Source of the DNA: Escherichia coli
Lineage (GTDB): Bacteria > Pseudomonadota > Gammaproteobacteria > Enterobacterales > Enterobacteriaceae
Length of the DNA: 64,000 nt
Direction: 5' to 3' (one strand)
NCBI RefSeq assembly: GCF_045037415.1
Contig: NZ_CP173438.1
How positions within the stretch are numbered: the first letter of the stretch is position 1; each line of letters starts with the position of its first letter. Shown piece by piece: positions 18,374-60,236 of the stretch. The notes below the pieces were generated by a model. It searched no databases and had not been told where the DNA came from. It saw only the letters and a list, made by a program, of their open reading frames with translations. Both the position numbers and the translations under genes were made by a program.

Positions 18374-18377
18374 GTCG

Positions 18378-37730: not shown

Positions 37731-37742
37731 CTTAACCTCCTG

Positions 37743-38912: not shown

Positions 38913-38933
38913 ATATTCCCTCAGTGGTGTGTG

Positions 38934-40352: not shown

Positions 40353-40363
40353 CGGCGCCCTCC

Positions 40364-41518
40364 TTAAAGATCCAGCAACAGTTGTTCCGGTGATTCCAGT
40401 AGCTCACGTATTGCCACCAATGTATGCACGGCTTCCTGACCATCGATAATGCGATGGTCATAGCTGAGAGCAAGGTACATCATGGGACGAATAACAACCT
40501 GACCGTTTTCTGCGACCGGGCGCGGCGTGATGGCATGCATCCCAAGAATGGCCGACTGCGGCGGGTTAATGATTGGCGTTGACATCATCGAACCAAAAGT
40601 ACCGCCGTTGGTGATAGAGAACGTGCCGCCCTGTAACGCCTCCAGCGGCAATTTGCCATTGCGTGCCTGTGTGGCGTATTCGGCAATTTGCCGTTCAATT
40701 TCCACCAAAGAGAGTGATTGCGCATTGCGTAACACAGGCACTACCAGGCCGCGGTTGCTGCTCACTGCAATGCCGATATCGCAATAATCACGCCAGATAA
40801 TCTCGTTGCCATCGACGCTGGCATTCACTACAGGGAAGCGCTCCAGCGCCCGGGTAACGGCCTTAACAAAGAAGGACATAAAGCCCAGCTTCACGCCGTG
40901 CTTCTCGGCAAAACGATCTTTCCAGCGGGCGCGTAAGTCCATCACGCTCTGCATGTTTACTTCGTTGAATGTGGTAAGAATGGCGTTATTTTGTTGGGAA
41001 GCCAGCAGACGCTCAGCAATTCGCTGACGTAAGCGCGACATCGGCTCACGACGTTCCTGACGAGCACCCGGTGTCAAGGGTTTAGCTGGCGCGATCTCCG
41101 CCACCCGTTCAGGCTGAATGGCTGGTGCAGGAGTAACGCGCTGCACATCCTCTTTCAGGATACGTCCATTTCTCCCGCTCCCCGCAACGTCAGCAAGTTC
41201 GACACCACTACGCTGTGCCTCCAGCCGTGCGGAAGGCATCGCCAGGGTTTCGGTGACTGGTGTGACGGTTTCTTCTATGACAGCTTGCGGCTTAAGATGC
41301 GCCAACAGTTGCGCGGACGTGACCGTGCTACCTTCGCTGACGATAATATTGCTTAACACGCCATCGTGCGGGGCCGGTATTTCCAGAATGACTTTATCGG
41401 TTTCCAGCTCGGCAATCACATCATCGCGTTTTACGTGCTCGCCTTCTTGTTTACACCAGGTTGTCAGCGTGCCTTCCGTGACAGATTCCGGTAATACAGG
41501 GACAGTAATTTCGATCAT
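40364..41518 (-). CDS. Dihydrolipoyllysine succinyltransferase (E2o) paralogue
   Basis: 384 aa. One lipoyl domain ([13 protein letters not shown]), a linker, and a catalytic domain with the SYDHRIIDG active site. Confidence 0.9.
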
Positions 41519-41550
41519 AAAATGTTCTCCTTATTATTTTTGTGCGCCTT

Positions 41551-44295
41551 TCATGGCTGAATATCTGCAAACGCAGCAGCAAGAAATTCGTCGATTTGTT
41601 GTTTATGTACACGCCCATACCCTGTCGCTGGTGCTGCCGCTGCCGGGCGGCCTGCATACTGCCAGTAAGGAGTGTTAATTTTCAGTGCCGCCAGCTCATG
41701 ACGAATCTGCCGCCACGCGCCCTGGTTTTCTGGCTCTTCCTGCAACCAAATCCATTCGCAGCAGTTCGGCCAACTCGCCAGAACATCATTCAGTTCTGCG
41801 ACCGGGAACGGGTAGAGTTGCTCCAGGCGAACAATCGCTACCTCGTCTTCATGCTCACGCTGCTTACGGGCTTCCAGTACGTCGTAATAGACCTGGCCGC
41901 TACACAAAATAACGCGCTTAACTTTCTGGGACTGATGCAATTGCGGATCGGTGATTACCGGTTTATAAGCGTCATCAGTGAATTCACAAAGCTCGCTCAT
42001 CGCGCCTTTAAACCGAAGTAAACGCTTACTCATCATTATCACTAACGGTTTGCGCATTGGGCGTAATGCCTGACCGCGCAACAAATGGAACATTTGTGCT
42101 GACTCACTGGGCATCACCACCTGCATGTTGTTTTCTGCGCACAGTTGCAGCCAGCGCTCAGGACGTGCGGAAGAGTGCTCCGGCCCTTGTCCGTCATAGC
42201 CATGCGGCAGAAGAATGGTTAAACCGCTATAGCGATCCCACTTGGTTTCGCCAGACGAGATAAATTGGTCAATAGCAACCTGAGCGCCGTTGGCAAAGTC
42301 ACCAAACTGTGCTTCCCAAATAACCAGTTGCTGAGGCGCAGACGTTGAATAGCCATATTCAAAGGCTAAGAGCGCTTCTTCATTAAGCACCGAATCATAA
42401 ACATCGAAAGATGCCTGACCAGCGCGGATATGCTGTAACGGCAGATAACGACGGGCTTCCGTTTGATGATGTACCACTGCATGGCGATGACTGAACGTGC
42501 CACGCCCTGAGTCTTCACCAGAAAGACGCACACCAACACCCGCATCCACAAGCGATGCATAGGCCAGCATTTCAGCCATTCCCCAGTCTACTGGCTGAGT
42601 ACCTGCGGCCATATCCTGGCGTAACGCCAGTTGCCGTTTAATGGTAGGATGTGCGACCACATCGGGTGGCAGTGTAGAAATGATTTCACCATACGCTGCC
42701 AGCTTTTGCCGAGGCAATGCCGTAGATACCGGGGCGCTCCAGTGAGGGTTGGTCAACCCATACCAGTTAGCGCTAAAAGAGTGAATTGCAGGTTTGAGAG
42801 GCTGCGGTTCACGTTTCTGGCAGCTATCCAGCCAGTCGCGATAGCGTGCCGTCATCTCATCTTGTTGCGCCTGAGTTAACAGGCCGCGGCGGGCAAGAGA
42901 TTCACCATAACGGGCGAGCGTACCAGGGTGAGCATCCACTGCCTGATACATTTGTGGCTGGGTAAGACGTGGCTCATCGCTTTCGTTGTGTCCGTGCTTA
43001 CGGAAGCAGCAAATATCGATGATGATGTCACGCCGGAAGGTGTCTCGCCATTCGCACGCCAGTTCCATTACCTGGCAAACAGCGTCAACGTCATCGCCAT
43101 TAACGTGGATAATTGGGGCCGCTACCATTTTGGCAATATCGGTGCAGTACCGTGAAGAACGCATATCCTGCAAGCGGGAAGTGGTGAAGCCAATCTGATT
43201 GTTAATCACCAGATGTAGCGTACCGCCAGTGCCGTAGCCCTGAGTCTGCGATAAGTTAAACGTGGTTTGGTTGACGCCGAGGCCGCCCAACGCGGAATCC
43301 CCATGAATAAGTACGCCCACCACTTTTGCCTGACCATCCTCACCACGGCGTTCCTGCCTGGCTCGCACCTGGCCCAGCACCACCGGATTCACGATCTCCA
43401 GATGTGAGGGGTTATACGCCAGCGCCACATGCAGCGAACCGGCAGGTGTTTCCAGATTGCTGGAATACCCCATGTGGTATTTCACATCGCCTGAACCACT
43501 GCCGATCGTCTGCTTGCCTTCAAACTCAGCAAAAAGCTGTGCCGGGTCTTTATTCAACAGATTAACCAGAACATTAAGTCTTCCCCGGTGCGCCATGCCA
43601 ATGACCATTTCCTCCACACCTTGCGCACGCAGGCGTTTTGTCAGCGTATCGAGCGCCGGGATTGCACTTTCGCCCCCTTCCAGAGAAAACCGTTTCTGCC
43701 CAACATAACGGGTATGCAGATAACGCTCTAACGTCTCTGCCGCCATCAGTTTTTCAAAACGAGCAATACAGGTTTGGGCATCAGCTTGTGGCGCATTGCT
43801 GCTCTCAATCCGTGATAACAACCAGTTGATTTCTTCACGATTTTCCAGATGAGCAAGTTCATAAGCCTGGCTACTGGCCCAGGCTTGCTCCAGCAGGTTA
43901 AGCAGTTGCTTAAGTGGCATTTGCGTGGTGTGTGCGCCAAAGGTGACGCTAAACTCCTGCAACAAGTCTTCTTCGCTTAATCCCCAAAAACCAGGCTGGA
44001 GGGAGGGAACGTCAGCCGGGGGATTCAAACCAAGTGGATCAAGCTTTGCGCGCAGATGCCCCTGCGTGCGCCAGGCATTGATCAGTTGTATTACCGCAGC
44101 CTGTTTTTTTAAGGTCGCACCGCTGATATTGTTATCACCGGATACGCTTTGGACAGTCAGTTCAGGTGAAAGAAAAAAACGCCGCCAGTCTTCCGGGAGT
44201 TGTTCCGGCGTACGCAACCAGGTCTGGTAGTACTCTTCAAGCCAGGTCGCGTTATCTCCACTAAGCAGCGTGCCGGGCGAGGTCATGTTCTCCAT
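41551..44295 (-). CDS. 2-oxoglutarate dehydrogenase E1 component paralogue
   Basis: 914 aa from ATG 44295 (MENMTSPGTLLSGDNATWLEEYY, SD aggaga). SucA-like throughout (HRGRLNVL, GDVKYH, LIHGD). The 41-codon upstream extension in the track runs through the promoter. Confidence 0.9.
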   Translation of the reverse strand: MENMTSPGTLLSGDNATWLEEYYQTWLRTPEQLPEDWRRFFLSPELTVQSVSGDNNISGATLKKQAAVIQLINAWRTQGHLRAKLDPLGLNPPADVPSLQPGFWGLSEEDLLQEFSVTFGAHTTQMPLKQLLNLLEQAWASSQAYELAHLENREEINWLLSRIESSNAPQADAQTCIARFEKLMAAETLERYLHTRYVGQKRFSLEGGESAIPALDTLTKRLRAQGVEEMVIGMAHRGRLNVLVNLLNKDPAQLFAEFEGKQTIGSGSGDVKYHMGYSSNLETPAGSLHVALAYNPSHLEIVNPVVLGQVRARQERRGEDGQAKVVGVLIHGDSALGGLGVNQTTFNLSQTQGYGTGGTLHLVINNQIGFTTSRLQDMRSSRYCTDIAKMVAAPIIHVNGDDVDAVCQVMELACEWRDTFRRDIIIDICCFRKHGHNESDEPRLTQPQMYQAVDAHPGTLARYGESLARRGLLTQAQQDEMTARYRDWLDSCQKREPQPLKPAIHSFSANWYGLTNPHWSAPVSTALPRQKLAAYGEIISTLPPDVVAHPTIKRQLALRQDMAAGTQPVDWGMAEMLAYASLVDAGVGVRLSGEDSGRGTFSHRHAVVHHQTEARRYLPLQHIRAGQASFDVYDSVLNEEALLAFEYGYSTSAPQQLVIWEAQFGDFANGAQVAIDQFISSGETKWDRYSGLTILLPHGYDGQGPEHSSARPERWLQLCAENNMQVVMPSESAQMFHLLRGQALRPMRKPLVIMMSKRLLRFKGAMSELCEFTDDAYKPVITDPQLHQSQKVKRVILCSGQVYYDVLEARKQREHEDEVAIVRLEQLYPFPVAELNDVLASWPNCCEWIWLQEEPENQGAWRQIRHELAALKINTPYWQYAGRPAAAAPATGYGRVHKQQIDEFLAAAFADIQP

Positions 44296-45751: not shown

Positions 45752-46756
45752 TCAGTCGGGAAGTTGGCGAAGAATTTGCTCCACTCGCTCTTGCAGTGGC
45801 CCCGAAACCGAAAGATAAGGAATGTTCCTGCGCGACAATTCCTGTTCATACCACACCTGTTGCCGTGCGCGAAATACCTCTCCTTGCCGGGTGCCATCCT
45901 GCACGAAGGGAAATTCTGCGCCGCAAAGCACTACCAGAGAGTATTCCCGCTCCGCCAGTTGGTGAAGTTCTTGCGGAGCATGACCATATTGATCAAGGGC
46001 ATAGAATAAGGTCGTGAGTGGCGACGTGTCACATATAAGATAGTGATTAGCTTCTGCTTGTTGTTCCCGGCGTACCTGTTCGCAGGCGATATGCAACAAA
46101 TCATCCGCAGTTAAGATACCGTTTTTTTCTTCCCAATAGTCGCGGCCAAATTCAGCGACATACACCGTATCAAGCACGCCCGCCAGCGCTTTTGAAAGCG
46201 TGCTTTTACCGGTAGATTCGCCACCAAGCAGACAGATACGGCGAACGAAACTGTAATAAACATCATTCGCCAACATGTAGCGATAGCGGTGAACATCGGA
46301 ACGAATAAGCGTTCCCGAAGGCGCTTCATCGCCAACTGGGCGCGCCATTCGAACGTGTTCAACGGGTTGGGCAAAACGCCGCGCCAGCACGTTAGCAAAG
46401 CCATCGCCATAGTCTTCTGCAGTAAATACAGCGTGTGGGCGGCAACGTAATATCTGCAAGCATAGCGTCGCCACATAATGACGGTGGATGTCGGCATCAG
46501 CATTGTTATGCGGGATAGCAGGTAAGTTATAACGCGCAACAAGCTCTGGCGTCAGTACCAAAAACGTCGCTTGCGGGAAGCGCACTTGCAGCCACGTCAG
46601 GCGCTTTTCAGGTTCACAGTCAGGCATTTCCGGCACGGAATAACTGATGATGAACAGTTCTTCACATTGCGCCAGTGCGGTATTGATCAACTTTTCATGA
46701 CCACAATGCAAAGGCGCGAATTTACCAACCACCAGACCCGTTGCAAAAGGCTTCAT
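45752..46756 (-). CDS. NadR-like bifunctional NMN adenylyltransferase / ribosylnicotinamide kinase lacking the N-terminal HTH domain
   Basis: 334 aa from ATG 46756 (ATGA overlap with the upstream gene). Nucleotidyltransferase motif GKFAPLHCGHEKLI. P-loop LLGGESTGKSTL in the C-terminal half. Confidence 0.7.
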   Translation of the reverse strand: MKPFATGLVVGKFAPLHCGHEKLINTALAQCEELFIISYSVPEMPDCEPEKRLTWLQVRFPQATFLVLTPELVARYNLPAIPHNNADADIHRHYVATLCLQILRCRPHAVFTAEDYGDGFANVLARRFAQPVEHVRMARPVGDEAPSGTLIRSDVHRYRYMLANDVYYSFVRRICLLGGESTGKSTLSKALAGVLDTVYVAEFGRDYWEEKNGILTADDLLHIACEQVRREQQAEANHYLICDTSPLTTLFYALDQYGHAPQELHQLAEREYSLVVLCGAEFPFVQDGTRQGEVFRARQQVWYEQELSRRNIPYLSVSGPLQERVEQILRQLPD

Positions 46757-47310
46757 GATGTTTGCAACTCTTTGCGCCATTGATACAAACCATACCAGGC
46801 GTTAATCCAGAACAGGAAATATAAGCCAGCGGTCAGGTTTAAACCGCGCGTCATATACAGTGGCACCGCCAGGGTATTCACCGCTAACCAGACGTACCAG
46901 TTTTCGATACGTCTTCCCATCAACATGAATTGTGCCAGAACGCTGAAGGTCAAAATCAACGAATCCAGCCAGGGTGCCCAAGCATTGGTAAAGGTGTGGA
47001 GTAAAAAGCCGTAACCGCCTGCCACGACGACAGCACAGAGCAACAAAAGGAAAAAGTGACTGGCTTGCGTTCGGCGCACCGGCAAGATGTCGCCACCCTG
47101 ACCTTTCAGCCAGTGGATCCAGCCAGTGATGCTGGTCACGATGAAGAATAACTGGAGCGTAACGTCGGCATAGAGTTGCACGGACCAAAAAACCCAGCCG
47201 TACAATATGCTGCCAATTATGCCGATCCACCATGTATGCACATTGTTTCTGGCAGCCAGCCAGACGGAAACCGCGTATGCCAGACACGCGGCGATTTCTG
47301 AATAAGACAT
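46753..47310 (-). CDS. PnuC-family (nicotinamide riboside-type) transporter, short form
   Basis: 185-aa Trp-rich polytopic ORF (..NNVHTWWIGIIGSILYGWVFW..; ..WYVWLAVN..) with SD gggaggga. It starts 22 nt after the alr stop. Confidence 0.65.
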   Translation of the reverse strand: MSYSEIAACLAYAVSVWLAARNNVHTWWIGIIGSILYGWVFWSVQLYADVTLQLFFIVTSITGWIHWLKGQGGDILPVRRTQASHFFLLLLCAVVVAGGYGFLLHTFTNAWAPWLDSLILTFSVLAQFMLMGRRIENWYVWLAVNTLAVPLYMTRGLNLTAGLYFLFWINAWYGLYQWRKELQTS

Positions 47311-48464: not shown

Positions 48465-49880
48465 TTATTCGTCGTCGTACTGCGGCCCCGCATAGTTGTC
48501 GAAGCGCGACCATTGACCGTTAAAGGTCAGGCGTACCGTCCCGATTGGGCCGTTACGTTGTTTACCGATAATAATTTCCGCGATGCCTTTTAAATCACTG
48601 TTTTCGTGATACACCTCATCACGATAGATAAACATGATCAAGTCCGCATCCTGCTCGATAGAGCCAGATTCACGCAGGTCGGAGTTGACCGGGCGTTTGT
48701 CGGCACGTTGTTCCAGAGAACGGTTCAACTGGGACAGCGCCACCACCGGCACGTTCAGTTCTTTCGCCAGTGCTTTCAGCGAGCGGGAGATTTCTGCAAT
48801 TTCCAGCGTACGGTTATCGGAAAGCGCCGGTACGCGCATCAGTTGCAGGTAGTCGATCATGATAAGCCCGATGCCGCCGTGTTCACGGGCAATACGGCGT
48901 GCGCGGGAACGCACTTCCGTTGGCGTCAGGCCGGAGGAATCATCGATATAGATATTGCGTTTTTCGAGCAAAATACCCATGGTGCCGGAAATGCGTGCCC
49001 AATCTTCATCATCGAGCTGCCCGGTACGGATTTTAGTCTGGTCAACACGCGACAGCGACGCCAGAGAACGCATCATAATCTGTTCTGATGGCATCTCCAG
49101 CGAGAAGATAAGTACCGGTTTATCCTGCAACATCGCCGCGTTTTCGACGAGGTTCATCGCAAATGTCGTTTTACCCATCGACGGACGCGCGGCAACGATG
49201 ATCAAATCCGACGGCTGCAAGCCAGCGGTTTTTTTGTTGAGATCGTCATAACCGGTGTTTACCCCGGTAACGCCATCGTGTGGCTGCTGAAACAACTGCT
49301 CAATACGCGCCACGGTTGCGTCGAGCACATCGGCGATGTTCTTCGGCCCTTCGTCTTTGTTTGCACGACTTTCGGCAATTTTGAAGACGCGGGATTCAGC
49401 AAGGTCCAGCAGATCTTCACTGGTACGCCCTTGTGGATCAAAACCGGCTTCGGCAATCTCATTCGCAACGGAGATCATCTCACGGACAACGGCACGTTCG
49501 CGCACGATATCCGCATAGGCACTGATGTTCGCCGCACTTGGCGTATTTTTTGACAGCTCTGCCAGATAAGCAAAACCACCGACGCTATCGAGTTGCCCCT
49601 GGCGTTCCAGCGATTCCGCAAGGGTAATCAGATCGATAGGACTACCGCTTTCCTGCAAACGCGCCATTTCAGTAAAGATATGACGGTGTGGGCGGGTGTA
49701 AAAATCGTCTGCCACCACACGCTCGGCTACATCATCCCAGCGTTCGTTATCCAGCATTAAACCGCCCAACACCGACTGCTCCGCTTCGATCGAGTGCGGA
49801 GGCACTTTCAGCCCGGCAACTTGTGGATCGCGTTCGCGGTTATCAGTCTGTTGTTTGTTGAAAGGTCTATTGCCTGCCAT
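48465..49880 (-). CDS. dnaB: Replicative DNA helicase
   Basis: 471 aa from ATG 49880 (MAGNRPFNKQQ). Walker A ARPSMGKTTF. Confidence 0.97.
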   Translation of the reverse strand: MAGNRPFNKQQTDNRERDPQVAGLKVPPHSIEAEQSVLGGLMLDNERWDDVAERVVADDFYTRPHRHIFTEMARLQESGSPIDLITLAESLERQGQLDSVGGFAYLAELSKNTPSAANISAYADIVRERAVVREMISVANEIAEAGFDPQGRTSEDLLDLAESRVFKIAESRANKDEGPKNIADVLDATVARIEQLFQQPHDGVTGVNTGYDDLNKKTAGLQPSDLIIVAARPSMGKTTFAMNLVENAAMLQDKPVLIFSLEMPSEQIMMRSLASLSRVDQTKIRTGQLDDEDWARISGTMGILLEKRNIYIDDSSGLTPTEVRSRARRIAREHGGIGLIMIDYLQLMRVPALSDNRTLEIAEISRSLKALAKELNVPVVALSQLNRSLEQRADKRPVNSDLRESGSIEQDADLIMFIYRDEVYHENSDLKGIAEIIIGKQRNGPIGTVRLTFNGQWSRFDNYAGPQYDDE

Positions 49881-49952
49881 AACGAATGGTGTTACCTGCT
49901 GTTGAATGGGGGACAAGAGAGTATAGCGAGAAACAGTTTCTCGCTACAGCAT

Positions 49953-50987
49953 TTAACGCCCCCGCTTTCCGGTGGAAGCGCGAATTTGCAGGGTCGGGCG
50001 ATAGATGTAATGGCTGAGCGGTGCGTCTGGTTGCGCAATACGCCGTAAAATTTGCTGCGCCGCCTGTTTCCCCAGAGCCAATGGTTCTACCGCAATTGTG
50101 GTTAACGGCGGGTTACTGTAAGCACAAGCCGCCACGCCATCATTACCAATCAACGAAATATCTTCCCCGGCAAATAATCCTCTTTCGCCTAGTGCCGACT
50201 CCGCGCCAAAAGCCATTAAATCGTTATAACAAATCACCGCTGTGGGTGGCGAAGGCATATCCAACAGCTGTTGCATCAACTGGTAGCCGTTGGCCTGAGT
50301 CGGTTCAGCACGCAGCGAAAAAGCATCAGTACTCCACGGCTGTAAACCATGGTGATTCATCGCCTCAAGGTATCCCTGATAACGCATATGGTGCGTAAGA
50401 CCACCAATAAACACGATATCTCTGTGCCCTTGTTGAATGAGATATTCCGTCGCTTCCCGTACACCTGCGTGGCTGTCCACGCCAACGTAATCGACGGGCA
50501 ATTGTTGCCAATCCAGAGGGCGCATCGTGATTAATAAGGGTGTGGAACTGTTGGCATAACGCTGTAAATCGGCTTCTGAGGTACTGTTCACTGGACAGAG
50601 GACAATGCCCGCGACGTGGTGTTCCAGCAAGGTATCAAGCACCTGTTTTTGCCGGTCACTACGCTGGGAGGTATTGGACATCACGGTGATAAAACCGTGC
50701 TCCGCCAGCGTCATCTCAAGACCCATAGTAAATTCAGCGAAGAAAGGATTTATCAAATCGTCAATGACTACGCCGATAGTTAGCGATTTTTGCGAACGCA
50801 GATTGGCAGCAAAACGGTTATAGACATAGCCTAATTGTTCAATGGCTTGCTGGACTTTTTGTTGCGTCTCTTTTTTGATAAGTGAACTGTCGTTGAGAAC
50901 CAGCGATACAGTCGATTTCGAAACGCCAGCCGCACGCGCAACATCGGTTAATGTTACCCGCTTTCTTCCTGTATCCGACTTCGCCAT
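49953..50987 (-). CDS. LacI/GalR-family transcriptional repressor
   Basis: 344 aa from ATG 50987 (SD ggag). HTH VTLTDVARAAGVSKSTVSLVLN followed by a periplasmic-binding-protein-like effector domain. Confidence 0.85.
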   Translation of the reverse strand: MAKSDTGRKRVTLTDVARAAGVSKSTVSLVLNDSSLIKKETQQKVQQAIEQLGYVYNRFAANLRSQKSLTIGVVIDDLINPFFAEFTMGLEMTLAEHGFITVMSNTSQRSDRQKQVLDTLLEHHVAGIVLCPVNSTSEADLQRYANSSTPLLITMRPLDWQQLPVDYVGVDSHAGVREATEYLIQQGHRDIVFIGGLTHHMRYQGYLEAMNHHGLQPWSTDAFSLRAEPTQANGYQLMQQLLDMPSPPTAVICYNDLMAFGAESALGERGLFAGEDISLIGNDGVAACAYSNPPLTTIAVEPLALGKQAAQQILRRIAQPDAPLSHYIYRPTLQIRASTGKRGR

Positions 50988-51048
50988 GCCTGCTCCAAAC
51001 CCCCATAAGATCAAGGCAATTACTTTATCATAATCTCCTTTTACTCAT

Positions 51049-51073
51049 GCGATCCGTTAACGCAAGGGATCGC
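51049..51073. promoter_or_regulatory. Inverted repeat in the divergent control region (candidate operator)
   Basis: GCGATCC-gttaacgcaag-GGATCGC, 7-bp arms. It sits between the LacI-family gene and the CoA-transferase operon, and an AT-rich tract follows. Confidence 0.25.
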
Positions 51074-51242
51074 AGGAGATCGTCGTTTCGATCACAGATT
51101 CGCACTTCCCTTGTTGTGTTTTTTACACCCTAATCGTACAAATTACGCATAAATTAGATCGTTCCAATTAATTTATGAAAATTATCATATTGTTTTAAAT
51201 GTATATTTTTAATTATTTTTATATCGAAACAAGGAAATTATT

Positions 51243-52814
51243 ATGTGCTCTGTACGCACGATCACTGCACCGGAAGCTGCAGATTTGATTGTTGATGGCG
51301 CAGTTGTCACCGTCTCCTCCTCCAGTGGAATGGGGTGTCCGGATGCGGTGCTGGCAGCAATAGGTGAACGCTTTCAACGTGCCGGACATCCGCAAAACAT
51401 CACCTCCATCCACCCTATCGCCGCTGGTGATATGTATGGCGTAAAAGGCATCGATCATCTGGCGCAACCGGGCTTACTGGCAAAAGTGATCGCTGGCTCC
51501 TACCCCTCCGGTCCATCATCAATGACGCCTCCGTTAATCTGGCAAATGATCAATGACAACGCGATCCCCGCCTGGAATCTGCCTTCCGGGATCTTATTTG
51601 ATATGCACCGGGAAGCGGCGGCTCATCGTCCTGGCGTGCTGACACAAACAGGCATGGATACCTATGTGGATCCCCTGTTGCAGGGCGGTGCAATGAATGA
51701 AAAAGCGGCGCAACAATCTCTGGTTGAACGTGTTCGATTTGCTAACGACGACTGGCTGTTTTTCCCCAGTATCGTGCCGCAGGTGGCGATCATTCGCGCT
51801 ACCACTGCCGATGAACGCGGCAACCTGACTTATGAACATGAAGGGGCTTATCTGGGGCCACTGGAACAGGCTACTGCCGTTCGCAATAATGGTGGCATCA
51901 TAATTGCGCAAGTAAAACGACAGGTTGCCGCCGGAAGTCTGAAACCAAAAGAGGTGCGTATTCCGGGTGTACTGGTGGATTACATCGTGATTGCGCCGGA
52001 ACAAACACAAACGACACAAACGCAATATGAACCTGCCATTTCCGGCGAAATCAGTCGTCCGCTGTCAGCCTTTCGTTATATGGAACATGGCCCGGCGCGA
52101 GTTATTGCCCAGCGAGTCGCGCAAGAACTACAAAGTGGAGATGCGGTAAATATTGGCTTTGGTATTTCTGCCAACGTACCACGCATTTTACTGGAACAAG
52201 GTCGCCACGGTGACGTCACCTGGCTGCTGGAACAGGGCGCGATTGGCGGAGTTCCACTGCTGGAATTTCAGTTCGGTTGTGCCTCTAATGCAGAAGCATT
52301 TTTGCCCTCTCCCCAGCAGTTCACCTATTTCCAGGGTGGTGGTTTTGATCTCACTCTGATGTCGTTTTTACAAATCGGCGCAGATGGCTCAGTGAACGTC
52401 TCACATCTCCCCGCTCGTCCACATGTCACTGCCGGATGCGGTGGATTTATTGATATCACCTCACATGCGAAACGCATTATTTTCTCTGGCTTTTTCAATG
52501 CCGGTGCCCAACTGCAACTGGAAGAGGGTCAGCTGCGTATCATTAAAGAAGGCAAAGCCAAAAAACTGGTACAGGACGTCGCCCACGTGACGTTCTCCGG
52601 CAAACGCGCAATAAGACTCGGGCAACAAGTACAGTACATTACTGAACGCTGCGTTCTGGAATTAACCCCAGACGGGCTACTGGTCACAGAAATTGCCCCA
52701 GGTATTGATCCTGAACGCGACATTCTCGCCCAAAGCGATGCCCCACTCCGTCTGGCAGACGATCTCAAACTAATGAATCCCCTCTATTTTCAACAAGGAA
52801 GTCACCATGAATAA
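51243..52814 (+). CDS. Family-I acyl-CoA:carboxylate CoA-transferase, fused alpha/beta (YdiF / propionate CoA-transferase-like)
   Basis: 523 aa, collinear with E. coli YdiF as I recall it (..NLPSGILFDMHREAAAHRPGVLTQTGMDTYVDP.., ..IIRATTADERGNLTYEHE.., ..GCGGFIDIT.., ..YITERCVLELTPDGL..). Confidence 0.8.
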   Translation: MCSVRTITAPEAADLIVDGAVVTVSSSSGMGCPDAVLAAIGERFQRAGHPQNITSIHPIAAGDMYGVKGIDHLAQPGLLAKVIAGSYPSGPSSMTPPLIWQMINDNAIPAWNLPSGILFDMHREAAAHRPGVLTQTGMDTYVDPLLQGGAMNEKAAQQSLVERVRFANDDWLFFPSIVPQVAIIRATTADERGNLTYEHEGAYLGPLEQATAVRNNGGIIIAQVKRQVAAGSLKPKEVRIPGVLVDYIVIAPEQTQTTQTQYEPAISGEISRPLSAFRYMEHGPARVIAQRVAQELQSGDAVNIGFGISANVPRILLEQGRHGDVTWLLEQGAIGGVPLLEFQFGCASNAEAFLPSPQQFTYFQGGGFDLTLMSFLQIGADGSVNVSHLPARPHVTAGCGGFIDITSHAKRIIFSGFFNAGAQLQLEEGQLRIIKEGKAKKLVQDVAHVTFSGKRAIRLGQQVQYITERCVLELTPDGLLVTEIAPGIDPERDILAQSDAPLRLADDLKLMNPLYFQQGSHHE

Positions 52815-53586
52815 CGGCACCATTGACCTCCAGCGCAACGGTTTCATTGCCACTTTGGTGATTAATCGCCCGGCGAAACTCAACGCATTAACCCCAGAGA
52901 TGCTCGAACAACTGCTGGCGCATTGCCACACGTTGGAAACTGATTCGGAGATCCGCGTAGTACTGCTGACCAGTGCCAGTGAAAAAGCGTTTTGTGTCGG
53001 CGCGGATATTCATCGCTGGACCTCTCTTTCTGCACTCGATATGTGGCGCAACTGGATCCGCCGCGGTCATCAGGCATTTGATGCTCTGGCACAACTGCCA
53101 CAGCCCGTAATCGCCCTGTTGCACGGCCTGGCTTATGGCGGTGGTCTGGAACTGGCTGCTACCGCCGATATCCGTATTTGTAGCGCCGAAGCACAAATGG
53201 CACTACCAGAAACCGGGCTGGCGACAGTGCCTGGCTGGTCAGGAACGCAGCGGCTGACGGCACTGCTTGGGCGCTCACTGGTGAAAGAACTGGTATTTAC
53301 CGGTGAACCACTGGATGCACAGCGGGCACTGTCCTGCGGGCTGGTGAATCGCGTTGTCGCCAGGGAGGCGTTACACGACGCCGGACTGCAACTGGCACAA
53401 CGTATCGCCCAGCGTGCTCCCGTTGCAGTGCAGATCGCCAAGCAGGTTATTGATGCCGGAGAAGGTATTGCTGTGGCCTCGACGCTTGAAGCACTGGCTG
53501 GCGCTTTTTCCGCCACGACTGAAGATGCTCATGAAGGCAGTCAGGCATTTACTGAGAAGCGTCAACCGCACTTTCAGGCACGCTGA
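52807..53586 (+). CDS. Enoyl-CoA hydratase/isomerase (crotonase fold)
   Basis: 259 aa with oxyanion-hole segments FCVGADI and LHGLAYGGGLELA. 8-nt overlap with the CoA-transferase gene. Confidence 0.85.
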   Translation: MNNGTIDLQRNGFIATLVINRPAKLNALTPEMLEQLLAHCHTLETDSEIRVVLLTSASEKAFCVGADIHRWTSLSALDMWRNWIRRGHQAFDALAQLPQPVIALLHGLAYGGGLELAATADIRICSAEAQMALPETGLATVPGWSGTQRLTALLGRSLVKELVFTGEPLDAQRALSCGLVNRVVAREALHDAGLQLAQRIAQRAPVAVQIAKQVIDAGEGIAVASTLEALAGAFSATTEDAHEGSQAFTEKRQPHFQAR

Positions 53587-53612
53587 TCGCCTCTTACAAG
53601 GAAAGAAAGATA

Positions 53613-54893
53613 ATGAATATGACAACCTCTGTTCCCCAAACGCCTTCTTTATTTCGGCGAATAATGACAAAACTCGCGGCCTTTGCACCTGGCATCTTTC
53701 TTATTGGCTACAGCATCGGAACAGGCAGCATCACCACTATGGCTAAAGCAGGTGCTAACTATGGTGTCTCGCTCATGTGGGCCGTGGCGCTTTCTTGCAT
53801 TGTTACCTGGTTTTTAATCCGTATTTATGGTCGTTATGCTTCCGTCACTGGTGAACGCGCGTTGACTGCATTTCGTCGCCATATCCATCCCGGCGTTGCG
53901 ATGTTGTTTCTGATCGGGTTAACCGTTGCCGTGAGCGGTTCCATTATGGGGGTAATGGGTATTCTGGCGGATGTAATGGCAACATGGTCCACGACCTGGT
54001 TTAGTGGCGGTATCTCAGCTCTCGCCTGGGCTATCGCGATGGTCATTATGATTAACGTGATGCTCTGGACCAACAGCAACGCCGGGTTCGACAAAATCCT
54101 CTCCGCGCTGGTTGGCATTATGGGGCTGGCGTTTGTGATTAATTTTTTCATTATGATGCCGCCGGTCGCAGATCTGCTGGCCGGATTTATTCCGTCTGTT
54201 CCCGATCCTGTCGCTGGCGATAACAGTACGCCATTTCTGATAATTTCTGGCATGGTGGGTACCACCGTAGCACCAGCAATGTTTCTTATGCGCACGACCC
54301 TGGTAAAAAGTAATGGTTGGGGTGTGGACAATTTGCCTCATCAAAATCGTGATGCCATTGTCAGTGCAGGAATGATGTTCATCATCAGTGCGGCGGTGAT
54401 GGCTGCGGCTGCGGGTACGTTGTACCAAACTGGCACAGGTTTAAATAATGCCTCGCAAATGGTCATTATTCTCGAACCTATTGCTGGCTCAGCTGCCGTG
54501 GGGCTCTTTGTTATTGGTATTGTTGCAGCCGGGCTTTCCAGCCAGTTCCCAAATTTGCTGTTAACGCCCTGGCTGCTGGCTGACTGGCGTGATACCAGCA
54601 ACGAAGTTAGCCCAGGTTACCGTATCCTGATGACGGTTATGTCTCTGCTTTGTCTGGTTGTGCCGCTGTTCCACGCACGCCCGGTATTGGTGATGATTGC
54701 CAGCCAGGCCTTTAACGCCATTATTCTGCCGCTGACTGTTTTATGTATGTTCTGGCTGGCGAACAAGCCTTCGTTAATGGGCAAATATCGTTGCTCACGC
54801 TGGGAAAACGTCATGTTTATTGCCATAAGCGTATTTACGCTAATCATGGGCTATATGGCAATGAGCGGCTTAATCGAAAGTCTGATGAAATAG
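53613..54893 (+). CDS. NRAMP-fold (MntH-related) permease lacking the metal-coordinating residues
   Basis: 426 aa. Aligns by eye to E. coli MntH TM1 and TM6, but DPGN is replaced by GTGS and MPH by APA (see findings). Confidence 0.7.
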   Translation: MNMTTSVPQTPSLFRRIMTKLAAFAPGIFLIGYSIGTGSITTMAKAGANYGVSLMWAVALSCIVTWFLIRIYGRYASVTGERALTAFRRHIHPGVAMLFLIGLTVAVSGSIMGVMGILADVMATWSTTWFSGGISALAWAIAMVIMINVMLWTNSNAGFDKILSALVGIMGLAFVINFFIMMPPVADLLAGFIPSVPDPVAGDNSTPFLIISGMVGTTVAPAMFLMRTTLVKSNGWGVDNLPHQNRDAIVSAGMMFIISAAVMAAAAGTLYQTGTGLNNASQMVIILEPIAGSAAVGLFVIGIVAAGLSSQFPNLLLTPWLLADWRDTSNEVSPGYRILMTVMSLLCLVVPLFHARPVLVMIASQAFNAIILPLTVLCMFWLANKPSLMGKYRCSRWENVMFIAISVFTLIMGYMAMSGLIESLMK

Positions 54894-54903
54894 GTGGGAC
54901 GCA

Positions 54904-56940
54904 ATGATTGACGAAACGCTAACGGCGCTCACTGATATCAAAATGCCCCATTACGCACCGCTGGCTCAAGCCAGCGGTAGTATCGACCTTAACGGTACCA
55001 TTTTACCAGAGTACTGCTGCAACACGCTGGTTCTGGGCAGTGGCGCGGCAGGATGGCGAGCTGCCGTCGAGCTGAAACGGCAAAATGTCGATGTAATGGT
55101 CGCCTCCAGCAAAGCCTTCTGGGGCACTTCCGCCTGTTCTGGTTCCGATAAACAAACGCTTCACACCGCGAATACGCGTGCAAATGGTGACCATTTTCTG
55201 ACATTAAGTAACACCCTGGCGGCAGGTGGTGCGATGGATCATGACACCGCATATGTTGAGGCGGTCGGATCGGTGAACACCTGTGAAGTACTGAAATATC
55301 TGGGTCTGGATCTGCCTGAAGATCTCTTTGGCGCAACGTTGCGTTATCAAACCGATCACGATGAATTTGGCCGTGCCACTAGCTGCGGTCCTCGAACATC
55401 GCGCCTGATGGTGAAGGTGCTGGCCCAGGAGGCAATGCGCCTTAATATTCCTCTTTGCGATCACACAACGGCGATTCATATCCTGACCAGTGGTGAAGGG
55501 GAAAATCGACGAGTCGTGGGGGTGATCGCCATCGATAAAGCCTGTCGGGATAATCCCTGGCGAATGGTCGTGATTCGCTGCCAGCATCTGGTTTTAGCCA
55601 CGGGCGGACCAGGTGAACTTTATCGTGACAGTGTTTATCCGGTGAACTGTTTTAGTGCGTTGGGCATGGCACTGGAAGCAGGTATAACTCTGGTTAATCT
55701 TACGGAAAGTCAGTTTGGTATCGGTACACCGCGCAGCCAGTTTCCGTGGAATCTTTCCGGTACTTACATGCAGGCGATGCCGCGCATCTATTCGCAGGAC
55801 CACTCCGGGCGTCAGTATAATTTTCTGGCAGCTTATTACCCCACGACTCGTATGCTGGCCTCCGCAATATTTCGTAAAGGTTACCAGTGGCCGTTTCACG
55901 CGGAACGAATGCTGGAATATGGCTCCAGCCTGCTGGATGTCGCAGTTTATGAAGAGACTCAAAAAGGGCGCGATGTTTTTCTTGATTTTCTACGGGAACC
56001 AGAACCCGCAGCGGACGGAACGTCATTCAACCTGCAAGAACTGGATGATGATGTCATCGACTATCTGCAACAAAATCACGCCCTGTTGGCACAACCGCTG
56101 GCGAGATTAACACAGATGAATCCTCTGGCTATTCGTTTGTATCAGATGCACGGTCATGATCTCACAGCCTCACCGCTCAAGTTTACGCTAAATAATCAAC
56201 ATCTTAATGGCGGAATTGAAGTTGATATTTGGGGACGTACATCGCTAACTGGTTGTTATGCTGCCGGAGAAAATGCCGGAACACATGGTGTCACGCGCCC
56301 AGGTGGAGCAGCGCTCAATGCCGGGCAAGTTTTCGCCCGCCGCTGTGCATTACATATTGCTCATCAGAAAAGCCAGGACCGGCCTCTCGAGAGGCAACAA
56401 ATTCTCAGTACGATTAATGAGGCGCAACAGTACCTGAATCAGGGGCTGCTACGTGACGACGTGCGAGAAACGATACAAAATACCATGAGCCACCATGCCG
56501 CAATTTTGTGTCATACACAGGGGATCAACACTGCCGCGCAAACCCTGGCAACACTTTGTGAAGATATTCGCCGGGAAGGTATTCAATGCGATGAAAACAG
56601 CCTGGCACAATCTTTCCAGTGGCGGCAAAGTGCGCAACTGGCGCTGGCTGTACTGCGTTCTTTACAATGTTATGTCGAAAACGGTGGTGGGAGTCGTGGT
56701 GCCAGGGCTATCTATGATGGCGAAGCCGGTATTGCACCGCAAACACCAGGTGGGCCACTCCTGGCCTGGCGTTTTCGGCCAGAAAATCAGGATGCCAGGC
56801 AATATATGATTTGTGTTTGTCGGGAAGCTAATGATTACCAAACCTGGACTCGCCCGTGCCGTGAACGGGGCGTATTAACGCTAACCAACTTTGAGCGCCA
56901 GTGGCAAAACTGGATTGCGGCGACGCCGTTTCAATACTGA
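54904..56940 (+). CDS. Stand-alone FAD-dependent oxidoreductase of the fumarate reductase/succinate dehydrogenase/L-aspartate oxidase flavoprotein family
   Basis: 678 aa. Dinucleotide fold LVLGSGAAGWRAA, FAD-closing motif AAGENAGTHGVTRPGGAALNAGQVF, helical C-terminal domain. No signal peptide and no adjacent Fe-S subunit. Confidence 0.75.
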   Translation: MIDETLTALTDIKMPHYAPLAQASGSIDLNGTILPEYCCNTLVLGSGAAGWRAAVELKRQNVDVMVASSKAFWGTSACSGSDKQTLHTANTRANGDHFLTLSNTLAAGGAMDHDTAYVEAVGSVNTCEVLKYLGLDLPEDLFGATLRYQTDHDEFGRATSCGPRTSRLMVKVLAQEAMRLNIPLCDHTTAIHILTSGEGENRRVVGVIAIDKACRDNPWRMVVIRCQHLVLATGGPGELYRDSVYPVNCFSALGMALEAGITLVNLTESQFGIGTPRSQFPWNLSGTYMQAMPRIYSQDHSGRQYNFLAAYYPTTRMLASAIFRKGYQWPFHAERMLEYGSSLLDVAVYEETQKGRDVFLDFLREPEPAADGTSFNLQELDDDVIDYLQQNHALLAQPLARLTQMNPLAIRLYQMHGHDLTASPLKFTLNNQHLNGGIEVDIWGRTSLTGCYAAGENAGTHGVTRPGGAALNAGQVFARRCALHIAHQKSQDRPLERQQILSTINEAQQYLNQGLLRDDVRETIQNTMSHHAAILCHTQGINTAAQTLATLCEDIRREGIQCDENSLAQSFQWRQSAQLALAVLRSLQCYVENGGGSRGARAIYDGEAGIAPQTPGGPLLAWRFRPENQDARQYMICVCREANDYQTWTRPCRERGVLTLTNFERQWQNWIAATPFQY

Positions 56941-57045
56941 TCAGAGATATTCCGGGTTGTGACCGCAGCCCGGAAAAAATCCCCGCGCGGCCTGGCGACT
57001 ACTGTTAGGCTTAAAACAGATATGTCGCTCAGTAAAGGAGTTTAA

Positions 57046-58029
57046 ATGGCAACGCGCATCGAATTTCACAAGCACGGTGGCCCGGAAGTACTTCAGGCCG
57101 TGGAGTTCACTCCTGCCGATCCGGCGGAGAATGAAATCCAGGTCAAAAATAAAGCCATCGGCATCAATTTTATCGACACGTATATCCGCAGCGGCCTTTA
57201 CCCGCCACCATCGCTACCCAGCGGATTAGGCACCGAAGCGGCAGGCATCGTGAGTAAAGTCGGCAGTGGTGTAAAGCATATTAAGGCAGGCGATCGCGTA
57301 GTCTATGCACAATCGGCATTAGGCGCTTACAGCTCTATGCATAACATTAATGCGGATAAAGCGGCGATTCTGCCTGCGGCAATTTCTTTTGAGCAAGCTG
57401 CGGCATCCTTCCTGAAAGGCTTAACGGTTTATTATCTGCTGCGCAAAACCTATGAAATTAAACCCGATGAACAGTTCCTGTTCCACGCAGCGGCTGGCGG
57501 CGTTGGCTTGATTGCCTGCCAGTGGGCAAAAGCCCTGGGCGCGAAACTTATCGGCACCGTGGGAACCGCGCAAAAAGCGCAGAGTGCGCTAAAAGCGGGC
57601 GCATGGCAGGTTATTAACTATCGTGAAGAGAATCTGGTCGAGCGGTTAAAAGAGATCACCGGTGGCAAGAAAGTGCGCGTGGTGTACGATTCAGTGGGCA
57701 GAGACACCTGGGAACGGTCGCTGGATTGCCTGCAACGCCGCGGCTTAATGGTGAGTTTTGGCAACTCATCAGGTGCGGTTACCGGTGTGAACTTAGGCAT
57801 TCTCAATCAGAAAGGCTCGTTGTATGTGACACGCCCTTCCCTGCAAGGCTATATCACCACGCGGGAGGAATTAACCGAGGCCAGTAATGAACTGTTCTCT
57901 TTGATTGCCAGCGGTGTGATTAAGGTCGATGTCGCCGAGCAGCAGAAATATCCGCTGAAGGATGCGCGGCGTGCGCATGAGATTCTGGAAAGCCGGGCGA
58001 CGCAGGGTTCCAGCCTGTTGATTCCATAA
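57046..58029 (+). CDS. qorA: NADPH:quinone oxidoreductase (zeta-crystallin family)
   Basis: 327-aa ORF (MATRIEFHKHGGPEVLQ...) with the nucleotide motif AAAGGVG. Confidence 0.93.
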   Translation: MATRIEFHKHGGPEVLQAVEFTPADPAENEIQVKNKAIGINFIDTYIRSGLYPPPSLPSGLGTEAAGIVSKVGSGVKHIKAGDRVVYAQSALGAYSSMHNINADKAAILPAAISFEQAAASFLKGLTVYYLLRKTYEIKPDEQFLFHAAAGGVGLIACQWAKALGAKLIGTVGTAQKAQSALKAGAWQVINYREENLVERLKEITGGKKVRVVYDSVGRDTWERSLDCLQRRGLMVSFGNSSGAVTGVNLGILNQKGSLYVTRPSLQGYITTREELTEASNELFSLIASGVIKVDVAEQQKYPLKDARRAHEILESRATQGSSLLIP

Positions 58030-58569: not shown

Positions 58570-59565
58570 TTAACGCTTATCCGCCACCAGTTTGAGCGCG
58601 TGTTCCAGCACATTAATGTCTGCACCCGCTTTATGGGCATTTTCACTTAAATAACGTCGCCACTGCCGCGCGCCAGGAATACCCTGGAACAAGCCCAGCA
58701 TATGCCGGGTAATATGGCCGAGATACGTCCCCTGGCTGAGTTCACGCTCAATGTACGGATACATGGCGCGCACTACCGCCACCGGATCGGCATCGGTATC
58801 CGAGGAACCAAAAATCTCTCGGTCTACCGCCGCCAGAATCCCCGGATTCTGATACGCCTCGCGCCCGACCATCACGCCATCCATATGTTGCAAATGCGCT
58901 TTAGCTTCTTCCAGCGACTTGATACCACCGTTAATCGACATCGTCAGATGCGGAAAGTCACGCTTCAGTTGATACACACGCGGATAATCGAGCGGCGGGA
59001 TCTCACGGTTTTCTTTCGGACTTAACCCAGAAAGCCAGGCTTTACGTGCGTGGATGATGAACATCTCACACTCACCTTTGCCGGAAACGGTGTTGATGAA
59101 ATCGCAGAGAAATTCATAGCTGTCCTGATCATCGATGCCAATACGCGTTTTCACCGTCACCGGAATCGACACCACATCGCGCATCGCTTTCACGCAGTCG
59201 GCAACCAGCTGCGCATTACCCATCAGACACGCACCAAACATGCCGTTCTGCACCCGGTCAGACGGGCAGCCGACATTCAGGTTGATCTCATCATATCCGC
59301 GCGCTTCTGCCAGCTTCGCACACTGTGCCAGCGCCGCCGGATCGCTACCCCCGAGTTGCAACGCTACCGGATGTTCTTCTTCACTGTACGCCAGGTAATC
59401 ACCTTTACCGTGAATAATCGCCCCTGTGGTCACCATTTCGGTATACAGCAACGTATTGCGGGAAAGCAGACGCAGGAAATAACGGCAATGTCTGTCCGTC
59501 CAGTCAAGCATCGGGGCAATCGAGAAACGGTAAGCGGGATAAACAGTGTGTGATTCTGCTGGCAT
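58570..59565 (-). CDS. dusA: tRNA-dihydrouridine(20/20a) synthase
   Basis: 331-aa ORF (..[17 protein letters not shown]..) of the Dus family TIM-barrel type. Confidence 0.9.
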
Positions 59566-59720
59566 GGCGACTTTTTAAGCATCTGGTAAATTGGGGGCGC
59601 TACTATAGCATAACGAATATGCGATCAGGCAATGTGACAGCCATGACACCCTGTTCTCGGCGTTTAAGTGAGAACTATGGTAAAGTAAGGACATTCTTAA
59701 CCCCACTGTCGAGGTGCCCA

Positions 59721-60236
59721 ATGGAAAAGACCACAACGCAGGAGTTATTAGCGCAGGCTGAAAAAATCTGCGCACAGCGTAATGTGCGCCTGACCCCACA
59801 GCGTCTCGAAGTGTTGCGCCTGATGAGTCTGCAGGATGGCGCTATCAGCGCTTATGATCTGCTTGATTTGCTGCGCGAAGCTGAACCGCAAGCCAAGCCG
59901 CCAACGGTTTATCGCGCGCTGGAGTTTCTGCTTGAACAAGGTTTTGTGCATAAGGTGGAATCCACCAACAGTTATGTGCTCTGTCATCTGTTCGATCAGC
60001 CCACCCATACTTCAGCCATGTTTATTTGCGATCGCTGCGGCGCGGTGAAAGAAGAATGTGCTGAAGGCGTGGAAGACATCATGCATACGCTGGCGGCAAA
60101 AATGGGTTTTGCCCTGCGGCATAATGTTATTGAAGCACATGGATTATGTTCAGCATGTGTAGAAGTAGAAGCGTGTCGTCATCCTGAACAGTGCCATCAT
60201 GACCACTCTATTCAGGTGAAAAAGAAACCTCGCTAA
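59721..60236 (+). CDS. zur: Zinc uptake regulator (Fur family)
   Basis: 171 aa from ATG 59721 (MEKTTTQELLAQAEKICAQRNVRLTPQRLEV). Cys pairs CDRCG and CSAC. Confidence 0.93.
   Translation: MEKTTTQELLAQAEKICAQRNVRLTPQRLEVLRLMSLQDGAISAYDLLDLLREAEPQAKPPTVYRALEFLLEQGFVHKVESTNSYVLCHLFDQPTHTSAMFICDRCGAVKEECAEGVEDIMHTLAAKMGFALRHNVIEAHGLCSACVEVEACRHPEQCHHDHSIQVKKKPR

Follow-up and report, generated by a model that had tools for sequence, protein, structure and literature searches.

Gene content of the dnaB-qorA block

The window analysed here, a 64-kb stretch of Escherichia coli DNA, carries a 7149-bp block (49897-57045) between dnaB (48465-49880, minus strand) and qorA (57046-58029, plus strand). The block encodes a LacI-family regulator and, divergently, a CoA-transferase, a crotonase, a permease and a flavoprotein, which may together form a catabolic operon for a polar carboxylate. 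In K-12 MG1655, the dnaB-qorA spacer measures 82 bp, and the alignment to K-12 puts the block in place of 66 bp of it. Homology to K-12 stops at position 49896, 16 nt upstream of the dnaB ATG, and restarts exactly at the qorA ATG (57046). A preliminary description of the window had placed the two genes less than 100 bp apart in K-12 and taken the block to be missing there; both points agree with MG1655.

The five open reading frames have the coordinates, overlap and gaps first described. The regulator (49953-50987, minus strand, 344 aa) combines an N-terminal helix-turn-helix (Pfam LacI, 4.7e-18) with a periplasmic-binding-protein-like effector domain (Peripla_BP_1/3; Peripla_BP_3 at 2e-32), as in LacI/GalR proteins, and scores below every NCBIfam equivalog cut-off. 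A divergent control region of 255 bp (50988-51242) separates it from four plus-strand genes. These encode a fused-subunit family-I CoA-transferase of the YdiF type (51243-52814, 523 aa; CoA_trans, 3.6e-25), a crotonase-fold enoyl-CoA hydratase (52807-53586, 259 aa; ECH_1, 4.7e-54), an Nramp-fold permease (53613-54893, 426 aa, or 409 aa from the RefSeq start ATG at 53664; Nramp, 1.7e-56) and a stand-alone flavoprotein of the SdhA/FrdA/NadB fold (54904-56940, 678 aa; FAD_binding_2, 3.3e-19). The first two genes overlap by 8 nt, and gaps of 26 and 10 nt follow. This overlap and tight spacing suggest that the four genes are co-transcribed as one operon. Pfam and NCBIfam agree on the families, and together with solved relatives and Foldseek they bear out the gene identities and folds proposed initially; no block protein attains any NCBIfam equivalog cut-off. 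No published characterisation of the operon was found in the literature by protein accession, locus tag or enzyme combination, nor was a characterised pathway with this gene set, so the label 'uncharacterised' is retained.

The CoA-transferase matches E. coli YdiF (PDB 2ahu) over its full length (residues 5-516, 3.2e-100). Its N-terminal half matches the pcaI/scoA model and its C-terminal half the pcaJ/scoB model, as expected of fused subunits. The catalytic-Glu segment aligns as LLEQGAIGG against TVETGPIGG in YdiF, with the Glu itself presumably at the position that it holds in YdiF, and the GGF oxyanion motif aligns as GCGGFIDIT against GTGGFIDIS. The best solved relative of the crotonase is the 3-hydroxypropionyl-CoA dehydratase 5zai (2.6e-55), followed by a clostridial short-chain enoyl-CoA hydratase. 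Both catalytic Glu motifs (equivalents of rat ECH Glu144 and Glu164) are kept, with GGGLELA and LPE aligned to 5zai and 5z7r. The acyl-CoA chemistry originally proposed is upheld by a CoA-transferase and a crotonase with intact catalytic motifs. With these motifs and the purifying selection described below, the block enzymes look functional.

The permease slot exists in two versions. A transporter cassette of 1353 bp (53575-54927, plus strand) separates the ST131-type block of the window from the CFT073 type, which has 1528 bp with a major facilitator superfamily (MFS) gene. The two versions are homologous up to 12 nt before the crotonase stop and again from 24 nt into the flavoprotein gene. 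The Nramp-fold gene occupies the slot in 546 genomes and the MFS gene in 280.

The flavoprotein family, its transporters and a paralogous operon

Foldseek returns FrdA, SdhA, AprA and NadB as top matches of the flavoprotein model, at 14-20% identity. Against FrdA, SdhA and NadB, the probability is 1.00 and the template-modelling score 0.5-0.75, and the protein has an FAD_binding_2 domain with capping and helical domains. The equivalents of NadB His351 and Arg386 are kept, in the motifs NNQHLNGG and HGVTRPGG, which are invariant in 15 homologues. Further invariant motifs are specific to the family: GTSACSGSDKQTLHTA, FPWNLSGTY, KGYQWP and GGGSRGAR. The QFHPT motif reads QFGIGT, with His replaced by Gly; the NadB alignment ends at QF, after which the protein continues with GIGTPRSQFPWNLSGTY. 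The RGEGG motif, with the capping-domain catalytic Arg of a dicarboxylate site, is not visible in the flavoprotein alignments. Because the QFHPT His and RGEGG are missing, the protein is not a fumarate reductase, succinate dehydrogenase or aspartate oxidase. Ser occupies the position of the SdhA covalent-FAD His in an alignment read by eye, and the FAD is probably bound non-covalently. No Fe-S or membrane-anchor partner gene of the complex II type lies in the block or its flanks, in line with the stand-alone flavoprotein noted at the outset.

The family is large, with at least 7988 cluster representatives of about 690 aa, most of them 52-56% identical, and its hosts are plant-, alga- and gut-associated bacteria. 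No characterised member was found, and the annotation of thousands of genes would follow from a single substrate assignment. Neighbours were mapped by tblastn and Pfam at 80 loci from different species, and four types of context recur. Type A (Enterobacter, Yokenella, Yersinia, Brenneria, Pectobacterium and others) has TetR with a short-chain dehydrogenase/reductase (SDR), Gfo/Idh/MocA, a xylose-isomerase-like TIM barrel, an MFS transporter and the flavoprotein. In type B (Rhodocyclaceae, Escherichia), TetR goes with (MaoC), SDR, TIM barrel, crotonase, CoA-transferase, flavoprotein and a TRAP transporter. Type C, with LacI, CoA-transferase, crotonase, transporter and flavoprotein, comprises the block, Citrobacter murliniae and Alphaproteobacteria. 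Type D (roseobacters, rhizobia) joins a CUT1 ABC system, two GMC oxidoreductases, LacI, a levoglucosan-dehydrogenase-like Gfo and the flavoprotein. In Pseudovibrio and Cohaesibacter, the flavoprotein is accompanied only by a transporter and a regulator.

Most loci of the family lack a CoA enzyme; the partners are SDR, Gfo/Idh/MocA and xylose-isomerase-like proteins, or GMC oxidoreductases. The flavoprotein follows taxonomy and not the partner set, since the type C and type D flavoproteins of Rhizobium are 85% identical. The flavoprotein is the constant core of the system, and the CoA-transferase and crotonase are one of several alternative partner sets. Taken with the Rhizobium pair, the prevalence of loci without CoA enzymes makes a dedicated acyl-CoA role unlikely. 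It also speaks against the earlier proposal that, by the logic of the carnitine (Cai) and acrylate pathways, the flavoprotein acts on an enoyl thioester. The CoA-transferase is 64-69% identical to alphaproteobacterial counterparts that adjoin the same flavoprotein family.

A second E. coli operon of the family lies between ytfB and rplI (contig L096, NZ_OW968124.1, 2501-12284). It comprises TetR, SDR, xylose-isomerase-like, crotonase, CoA-transferase, 690-aa flavoprotein and TRAP genes. Among the 5426 complete genomes, 1448 match it at ≥80% coverage. In Nissle 1917 (L099, 4001-12280), which holds both operons, the TRAP system is swapped for an MFS protein of the D-galactonate transporter family. 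K-12 retains only about 400 bp of the TetR gene. Between the two operons, identity is 38% for the CoA-transferase, 37% for the crotonase and 52% for the flavoprotein. One strain has an internal stop in the CoA-transferase gene at ytfB-rplI. For SMc04130 (Sinorhizobium), a solved relative of the TIM-barrel protein of this operon, no informative literature was found.

The permease of the block matches the Nramp profile over positions 1-356 of 357, consistent with an Nramp (LeuT-type) fold. Alignment to a solved Nramp protein shows that the metal ligands are replaced, DPGN in transmembrane helix 1 by GTGS and MPH in transmembrane helix 6 by APA; all 10 clade members compared, which represent four phyla, have the same substitutions. 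Against the MntH model (cut-off 430), the block permease reaches 83.7 bits. It is named 'Nramp family divalent metal transporter' in RefSeq because it passes the generic NCBIfam model NF037982 (Nramp_1; 60.8 bits, cut-off 50). A metal transporter identity was rejected on account of the lost ligands, which corrects a systematic RefSeq misannotation of the clade. This metal-ligand-free clade has at least 2107 homologues in Bacteroidota, Verrucomicrobiota, Alpha- and Gammaproteobacteria (loci L092-L095 among them). It has lost the Met and His of MPH, and its contexts include uxuA/uxuB/uxaC, mannose and SusCD genes. A relative 64% identical to the block permease adjoins uxuA, a fructuronate reductase gene (726 bits, above the NCBIfam cut-off), uxaC and a UxuR-like regulator. 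For remoter relatives, the neighbours are uxuA and a gene of the mannitol dehydrogenase family, or SusCD and mannose-6-phosphate isomerase. A non-metal Nramp-fold clade in sugar-acid clusters would widen the substrate range of SLC11 transporters.

The other transporters linked to the family have related contexts. The MFS protein of CFT073 and Citrobacter is a metabolite:H+ symporter whose best model is the shikimate transporter (267 bits, under the 538-bit cut-off). For the binding protein of the paralogous TRAP system, the 14 best solved relatives score 1e-71 to 1e-51 and presumably bind hexuronates in general. Among those at 1e-71 to 1e-56, 4N8Y binds galacturonate and 4X8R glucuronate (PMC11668362). 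Alphaproteobacterial loci of the flavoprotein family carry CUT1 sugar ABC systems; a solved relative of the Pseudovibrio ABC binding protein was not found. The ABC binding protein beside the crotonase at locus L041 is a close relative of PDB 4r2b (3e-151). We take 4r2b to be a glucose-binding protein, and the L041 protein may simply belong to a neighbouring glucose system. Sugar and sugar-acid contexts are the norm across the flavoprotein family, so that a sugar-type regulator and an Nramp-fold importer are not the unexpected partners that they had first seemed.

Regulation, distribution and age

The divergent control region consists of conserved blocks amid diverged sequence in an alignment with CFT073, C. 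murliniae (L011) and contig L003. C. murliniae and L003 share, in their divergent regions, a perfect palindrome of 14 bp centred on CG, TTGGAACGTTCCAA. The corresponding candidate operator of the window, TTAGATCGTTCCAA (51154-51167), lies 76-89 bp upstream of the CoA-transferase ATG and differs from TTGGAACGTTCCAA by 2 mismatches; it is the sole match to the palindrome at ≤2 mismatches within the window. Four alphaproteobacterial loci of type C (L057, L082, L084, L088) also have TTGGAACGTTCCAA without mismatch in their control regions, and most LacI-linked loci of types C and D have a copy with 1-2 mismatches immediately in front of a flavoprotein or Gfo gene. In total, the exact palindrome occurs 6 times, in loci of two proteobacterial classes, within the 1.54 Mb of homologous loci examined, where chance would give about 0.01 by our own estimate. 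The recognition helix AGVSKSTVSLVL and the hinge LGYVYNRxAAxLR are near-invariant in the flavoprotein-linked LacI genes of Alpha- and Gammaproteobacteria. Such a central-CG palindrome, conserved in homologous control regions, has the form of a LacI/GalR operator. Since both the palindrome and the recognition helix are conserved across homologous loci, LacI control, as proposed at the outset, gains comparative support. There is good comparative evidence for one orthologous LacI regulon with a candidate operator of the TGGAACGTTCCA type, which offers a direct handle for effector screening. A further conserved block, GAGATCG-N5-TCGATCACA (51076-51096), has arms that are invariant in four sequences around a variable spacer and is possibly a second regulator site.

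The block is carried by 826 of the 5426 complete E. coli genomes (about 15%), at ≥80% coverage in 825 of the 826. Presence is binary, and 4597 of the 5426 have an empty K-12-type site. In every inspected record, the block lies between dnaB and qorA. There is one copy per genome, save one genome with two matching places, one of them on a plasmid; this plasmid-borne match (one of 827-828) is the MFS version. The carriers include ST131 strains 100% identical to the window, CFT073 and Nissle 1917. As the extraintestinal pathogens ST131 and CFT073 and the probiotic Nissle 1917 carry the operon and K-12 does not, it is a candidate trait for the gut or urinary-tract niche. C. murliniae has the MFS version at the same dnaB-qorA site, and the MFS form is therefore probably the older one. 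In its contig (L011, 2812-5670), only partial single-frame matches were obtained for LacI (242/344 aa) and the CoA-transferase (490/523 aa), which could reflect frameshifts or an artefact of ORF extension.

Identity to C. murliniae is 77-92% for the proteins of the block and 89-97% for the flanking core proteins. Synonymous divergence (dS) from C. murliniae is saturated in the block as in the flanking core genes. The ratio of non-synonymous to synonymous substitution (dN/dS) of block genes is 0.04-0.09 against C. murliniae and L003, indicating purifying selection. The GC content of the block (51.2%) is close to that of the window (51.6%). In contig L003, a 78%-identical block lies at another chromosomal site beside fimbrial genes, so the unit has moved at some time. 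The lack of mobility marks at the borders, remarked on from the start, is borne out: the annotated record identical to the block contains no integrase or insertion sequence (IS), a search of the block region found no tRNA, and no pair of border repeats exceeds chance level. An Rfam search of the block matched no family. The 66 K-12-specific bases align to the block no better than shuffled sequence, and their reading as a deletion scar was rejected.

The preliminary description had called the block inserted. Recent acquisition of a genomic island into the dnaB-qorA promoter region, in phylogroup B2, would account for the 4597 genomes without the block, for its sharp boundaries against K-12 and for the related block beside fimbrial genes in L003. 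However, C. murliniae has the block at the same site, the block proteins are more diverged from Citrobacter than those encoded by the flanks while dS is saturated in both, and the composition equals that of the surroundings. None of the integrase or IS, tRNA target, direct repeats or deviant composition of genomic islands is found. A recent island is thus very improbable. Given the shared Citrobacter site, the saturated dS and the matching GC content, an old locus lost from most lineages fits better, with long residence in E. coli B2 and Citrobacter and loss elsewhere.

At its borders, the block may affect both neighbours. The 72-bp spacer upstream of the essential dnaB (49881-49952) is unlike K-12 past 16 nt. 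A terminator-like scan found a hairpin with a 12-bp stem in it (49922-49948, minus strand), directly 3' of the LacI-family stop; its role as a terminator is uncertain because the tail is not T-rich. A scan for sigma-70-like promoters gave no match for the operon on the plus strand and none for dnaB, which may be read through from the regulator gene or transcribed from an unrecognised promoter. On the other side, the 105-bp spacer (56941-57045, plus strand) substitutes the whole K-12 qorA upstream region. The terminator-like scan reported no plus-strand site in it, and qorA may be co-transcribed with the operon in carriers.

Pathway readings and comparison with known systems

We consider the block, with a probability of about one half, to be a chromosomal catabolic operon under LacI-type repression. 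Its substrate would be a polar carboxylate, and a sugar acid or similar polyhydroxy acid resembling hexuronates or aldonates is the likeliest candidate. In such a pathway, the repressor would sit on the TGGAACGTTCCA-type palindrome and be released when the substrate or an early product is present. The acid would be taken up by the permease, either MFS or non-metal Nramp-fold in the same slot. The YdiF-type CoA-transferase would form a thioester, taking the CoA from acetyl-CoA or from the CoA ester of the pathway product, and the crotonase would add or remove water across C2-C3 of the thioester. The CoA would then be handed back, giving a catalytic cycle as in AcuN/AcuK. The flavoprotein would carry out a two-electron oxidation or reduction next to the carboxylate, probably on the free acid and not on the thioester. 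The substrate class, the order of steps and the direction of the flavin reaction are all deduced from the homologies and gene contexts above. A sugar-acid-like carboxylate is preferred because every Escherichia-linked transporter is of a sugar-acid or organic-acid type.

Several observations weigh against this reading. The CoA-transferase and crotonase are nearest to short-chain enzymes, for which small C3-C4 acids would be no worse a fit than a bulky sugar acid. The pointer to uronates stems from the ytfB-rplI operon, and its CoA-transferase shares only 38% identity with that of the block, its crotonase only 37%. Both mismatches of the E. coli operator fall in one half-site. The AlphaFold model of the flavoprotein has a mean confidence (pLDDT) of 75.5 and is poor at conserved residues 75-96 and 133-162. 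Finally, the flavoprotein possibly forms a unit with the transporter, functionally apart from the CoA enzymes.

The short-chain affinities would suit the model of the preliminary description, a pathway for 3-hydroxypropionate, acrylate, crotonate, hydroxybutyrates or carnitine-like compounds, in which the acid is thioesterified and (de)hydrated across C2-C3 and the flavoprotein then reduces or oxidises the enoyl bond. The proximity of the crotonase to 3-hydroxypropionyl-CoA dehydratase (2.6e-55) and a short-chain enoyl-CoA hydratase, and the YdiF-like CoA-transferase, suit this reading. It also has a precedent in AcuN/AcuK, which interconvert acrylate and 3-hydroxypropionate via a transient thioester (PMC3338564). 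However, it has against it a flavoprotein family that occurs mostly without CoA enzymes, with members from a CoA-type and a non-CoA locus of Rhizobium 85% identical, and a regulator and four transporter types that are all suggestive of sugars or sugar acids. The block also lacks the enzymes that define the Cai pathway, CaiB of family III and the acyl-CoA dehydrogenase CaiA, and a short-chain pathway appears unlikely. Less probable than this is a pathway for hydroaromatic acids (shikimate, quinate, dihydroshikimate), with ring (de)hydration assigned to the CoA enzymes and the flavoprotein working on the ring carboxylate as a soluble enoate reductase or dehydrogenase. The ancestral MFS protein of the block is best matched by the shikimate transporter model (267 bits, cut-off 538), and the homologues are largely plant-associated (Brenneria, Pectobacterium, Rhizobium, Phytobacter, Kosakonia). 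Non-covalent FAD enzymes of the SdhA/NadB fold are typically enoate reductases, and K-12 ydiF adjoins ydiB and aroD. Yet no examined locus contains a dehydroquinase or shikimate dehydrogenase gene, the crotonase needs a beta-hydroxyl or 2-enoyl group that quinate does not offer, and the TRAP and Nramp-fold contexts favour uronates over cyclitol acids.

The four genes could also be two functional units on a shared promoter, transporter-flavoprotein and CoA-transferase-crotonase, serving different compounds or distant steps. In the CFT073 type and in TetR-type operons, the transporter gene directly adjoins the flavoprotein gene or overlaps it, and in Pseudovibrio and Cohaesibacter the two stand with only a regulator. 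Between the E. coli operons, moreover, the CoA enzymes are 37-38% identical against 52% for the flavoproteins. This division is nevertheless at odds with the recurrence of the CoA-transferase/crotonase/LacI/flavoprotein set in Alphaproteobacteria, with transferases 64-69% identical and the same operator, and of the CoA-transferase/crotonase/flavoprotein set in the TetR-type operon of Rhodocyclaceae and Escherichia. Because the three proteins co-occur repeatedly, one pathway is argued for, and two separate units are slightly less likely again than a hydroaromatic route.

Beyond the sugar-acid operon itself, a larger claim is possible, though doubtful. This would be an undescribed pathway spread across Proteobacteria, with a new SdhA/NadB-fold flavoenzyme acting on sugar-derived carboxylates, a LacI regulon defined by TGGAACGTTCCA, and an ST131-type importer belonging to the first organic-sugar-acid clade of Nramp/SLC11. 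Nothing so far shows chemistry beyond known categories. The block is a repressor-controlled catabolic operon of known folds, plus an uncharacterised flavoenzyme family and an atypical permease.

Further features lie elsewhere in the window. The Kgu (alpha-ketoglutarate utilisation) island occupies the aphA-tyrB interval (30903-44295), with genes for a sensor kinase, a sigma-54 regulator, an Ldh-family oxidoreductase, a DASS symporter, sucCD and a second 2-oxoglutarate dehydrogenase set. In SK1144, a record matching the block at 100%, the lpdA-like gene of the island (window coordinates 38935-40352) is annotated as frameshifted. The island (CFT073 tags c5035-c5040) was considered as a known counterpart of the block and set aside, as it lies at another locus of the window, between tyrB and aphA. 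Genes for an AAA-family ATPase and the nicotinamide riboside transporter PnuC (45752-47310) separate tyrB from alr, two genes that stand side by side in K-12. The IS3-family element IS1397 (12789-14137) lies between acs and yjcH, and an LrgB/LrgA-like pair with a divergent LysR regulator (16295-18375) between actP and yjcE. At 59550-60236, yjbM, which is upstream of dusA in K-12 (L091, 1-700), is missing, and zur directly follows dusA.

Several characterised systems share parts of the proposed pathway. The likeness to hexuronate systems (UxaC/UxuA/UxuB with ExuT or TRAP) is confined to transporter relatives, namely the Nramp-fold protein in a uxu cluster and the uronate TRAP proteins. The block has no Uxa or Uxu isomerase, dehydratase or reductase, and we know of no hexuronate pathway with CoA chemistry. 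The deoxyribonate cluster of Klebsiella michiganensis encodes a CoA-synthetase, a beta-hydroxyacyl-CoA dehydrogenase, a thiolase and a glycerate kinase, with no crotonase or SdhA-fold flavoprotein (PMC6365646). It was rejected as a match, since none of these four marker genes is in the block.

The block follows the Cai pathway (CaiB/CaiD/CaiA) in its formal logic: a CoA transfer, then a (de)hydration, then a flavin-dependent redox step. CaiB belongs to the family-III transferases and CaiA to the acyl-CoA dehydrogenases, whereas the block has a family-I transferase (PF01144) and an FAD_binding_2 flavoprotein of the SdhA/NadB fold, and identity with this pathway was rejected. The crotonase matches the CaiD model at 3.6e-43, far under the 500-bit cut-off. 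YdiF and clostridial propionate CoA-transferase resemble the block enzyme in their fused alpha/beta family-I architecture, Glu segment and GGFIDI motif. The block CoA-transferase is, however, a separate paralogue, partnered with a crotonase and an SdhA-fold flavoprotein. The partners of K-12 ydiF are presumably the acyl-CoA dehydrogenase and electron-transfer flavoprotein (ETF) set ydiO/ydiQRST, unlike those in the block. SdhA, FrdA and NadB, including soluble fumarate reductases, share the FAD_binding_2 domain and, at a template-modelling score of 0.6-0.7 for FrdA and SdhA, the overall fold with the block flavoprotein, which scores below every NCBIfam cut-off and lacks an Fe-S or anchor partner.

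The ytfB-rplI operon, itself uncharacterised, has the same CoA-transferase/crotonase/flavoprotein trio and a sugar-acid-type transporter that is swapped between strains, but it has TetR in place of LacI and additional SDR and TIM-barrel genes. AcuN and AcuK of Halomonas HTNK1 and Alcaligenes faecalis convert acrylate to 3-hydroxypropionate via a transient thioester (PMC3338564). The block is likened to them by reaction logic, a CoA-transferase and a hydratase giving net hydration of a free acid, and differs in lacking the ddd/acu context and in its regulator, transporters and flavoprotein partner. For a transferase-crotonase pair without a ligase, thiolase or acyl-CoA dehydrogenase, an AcuN/AcuK-like cycle would be the most economical reading.

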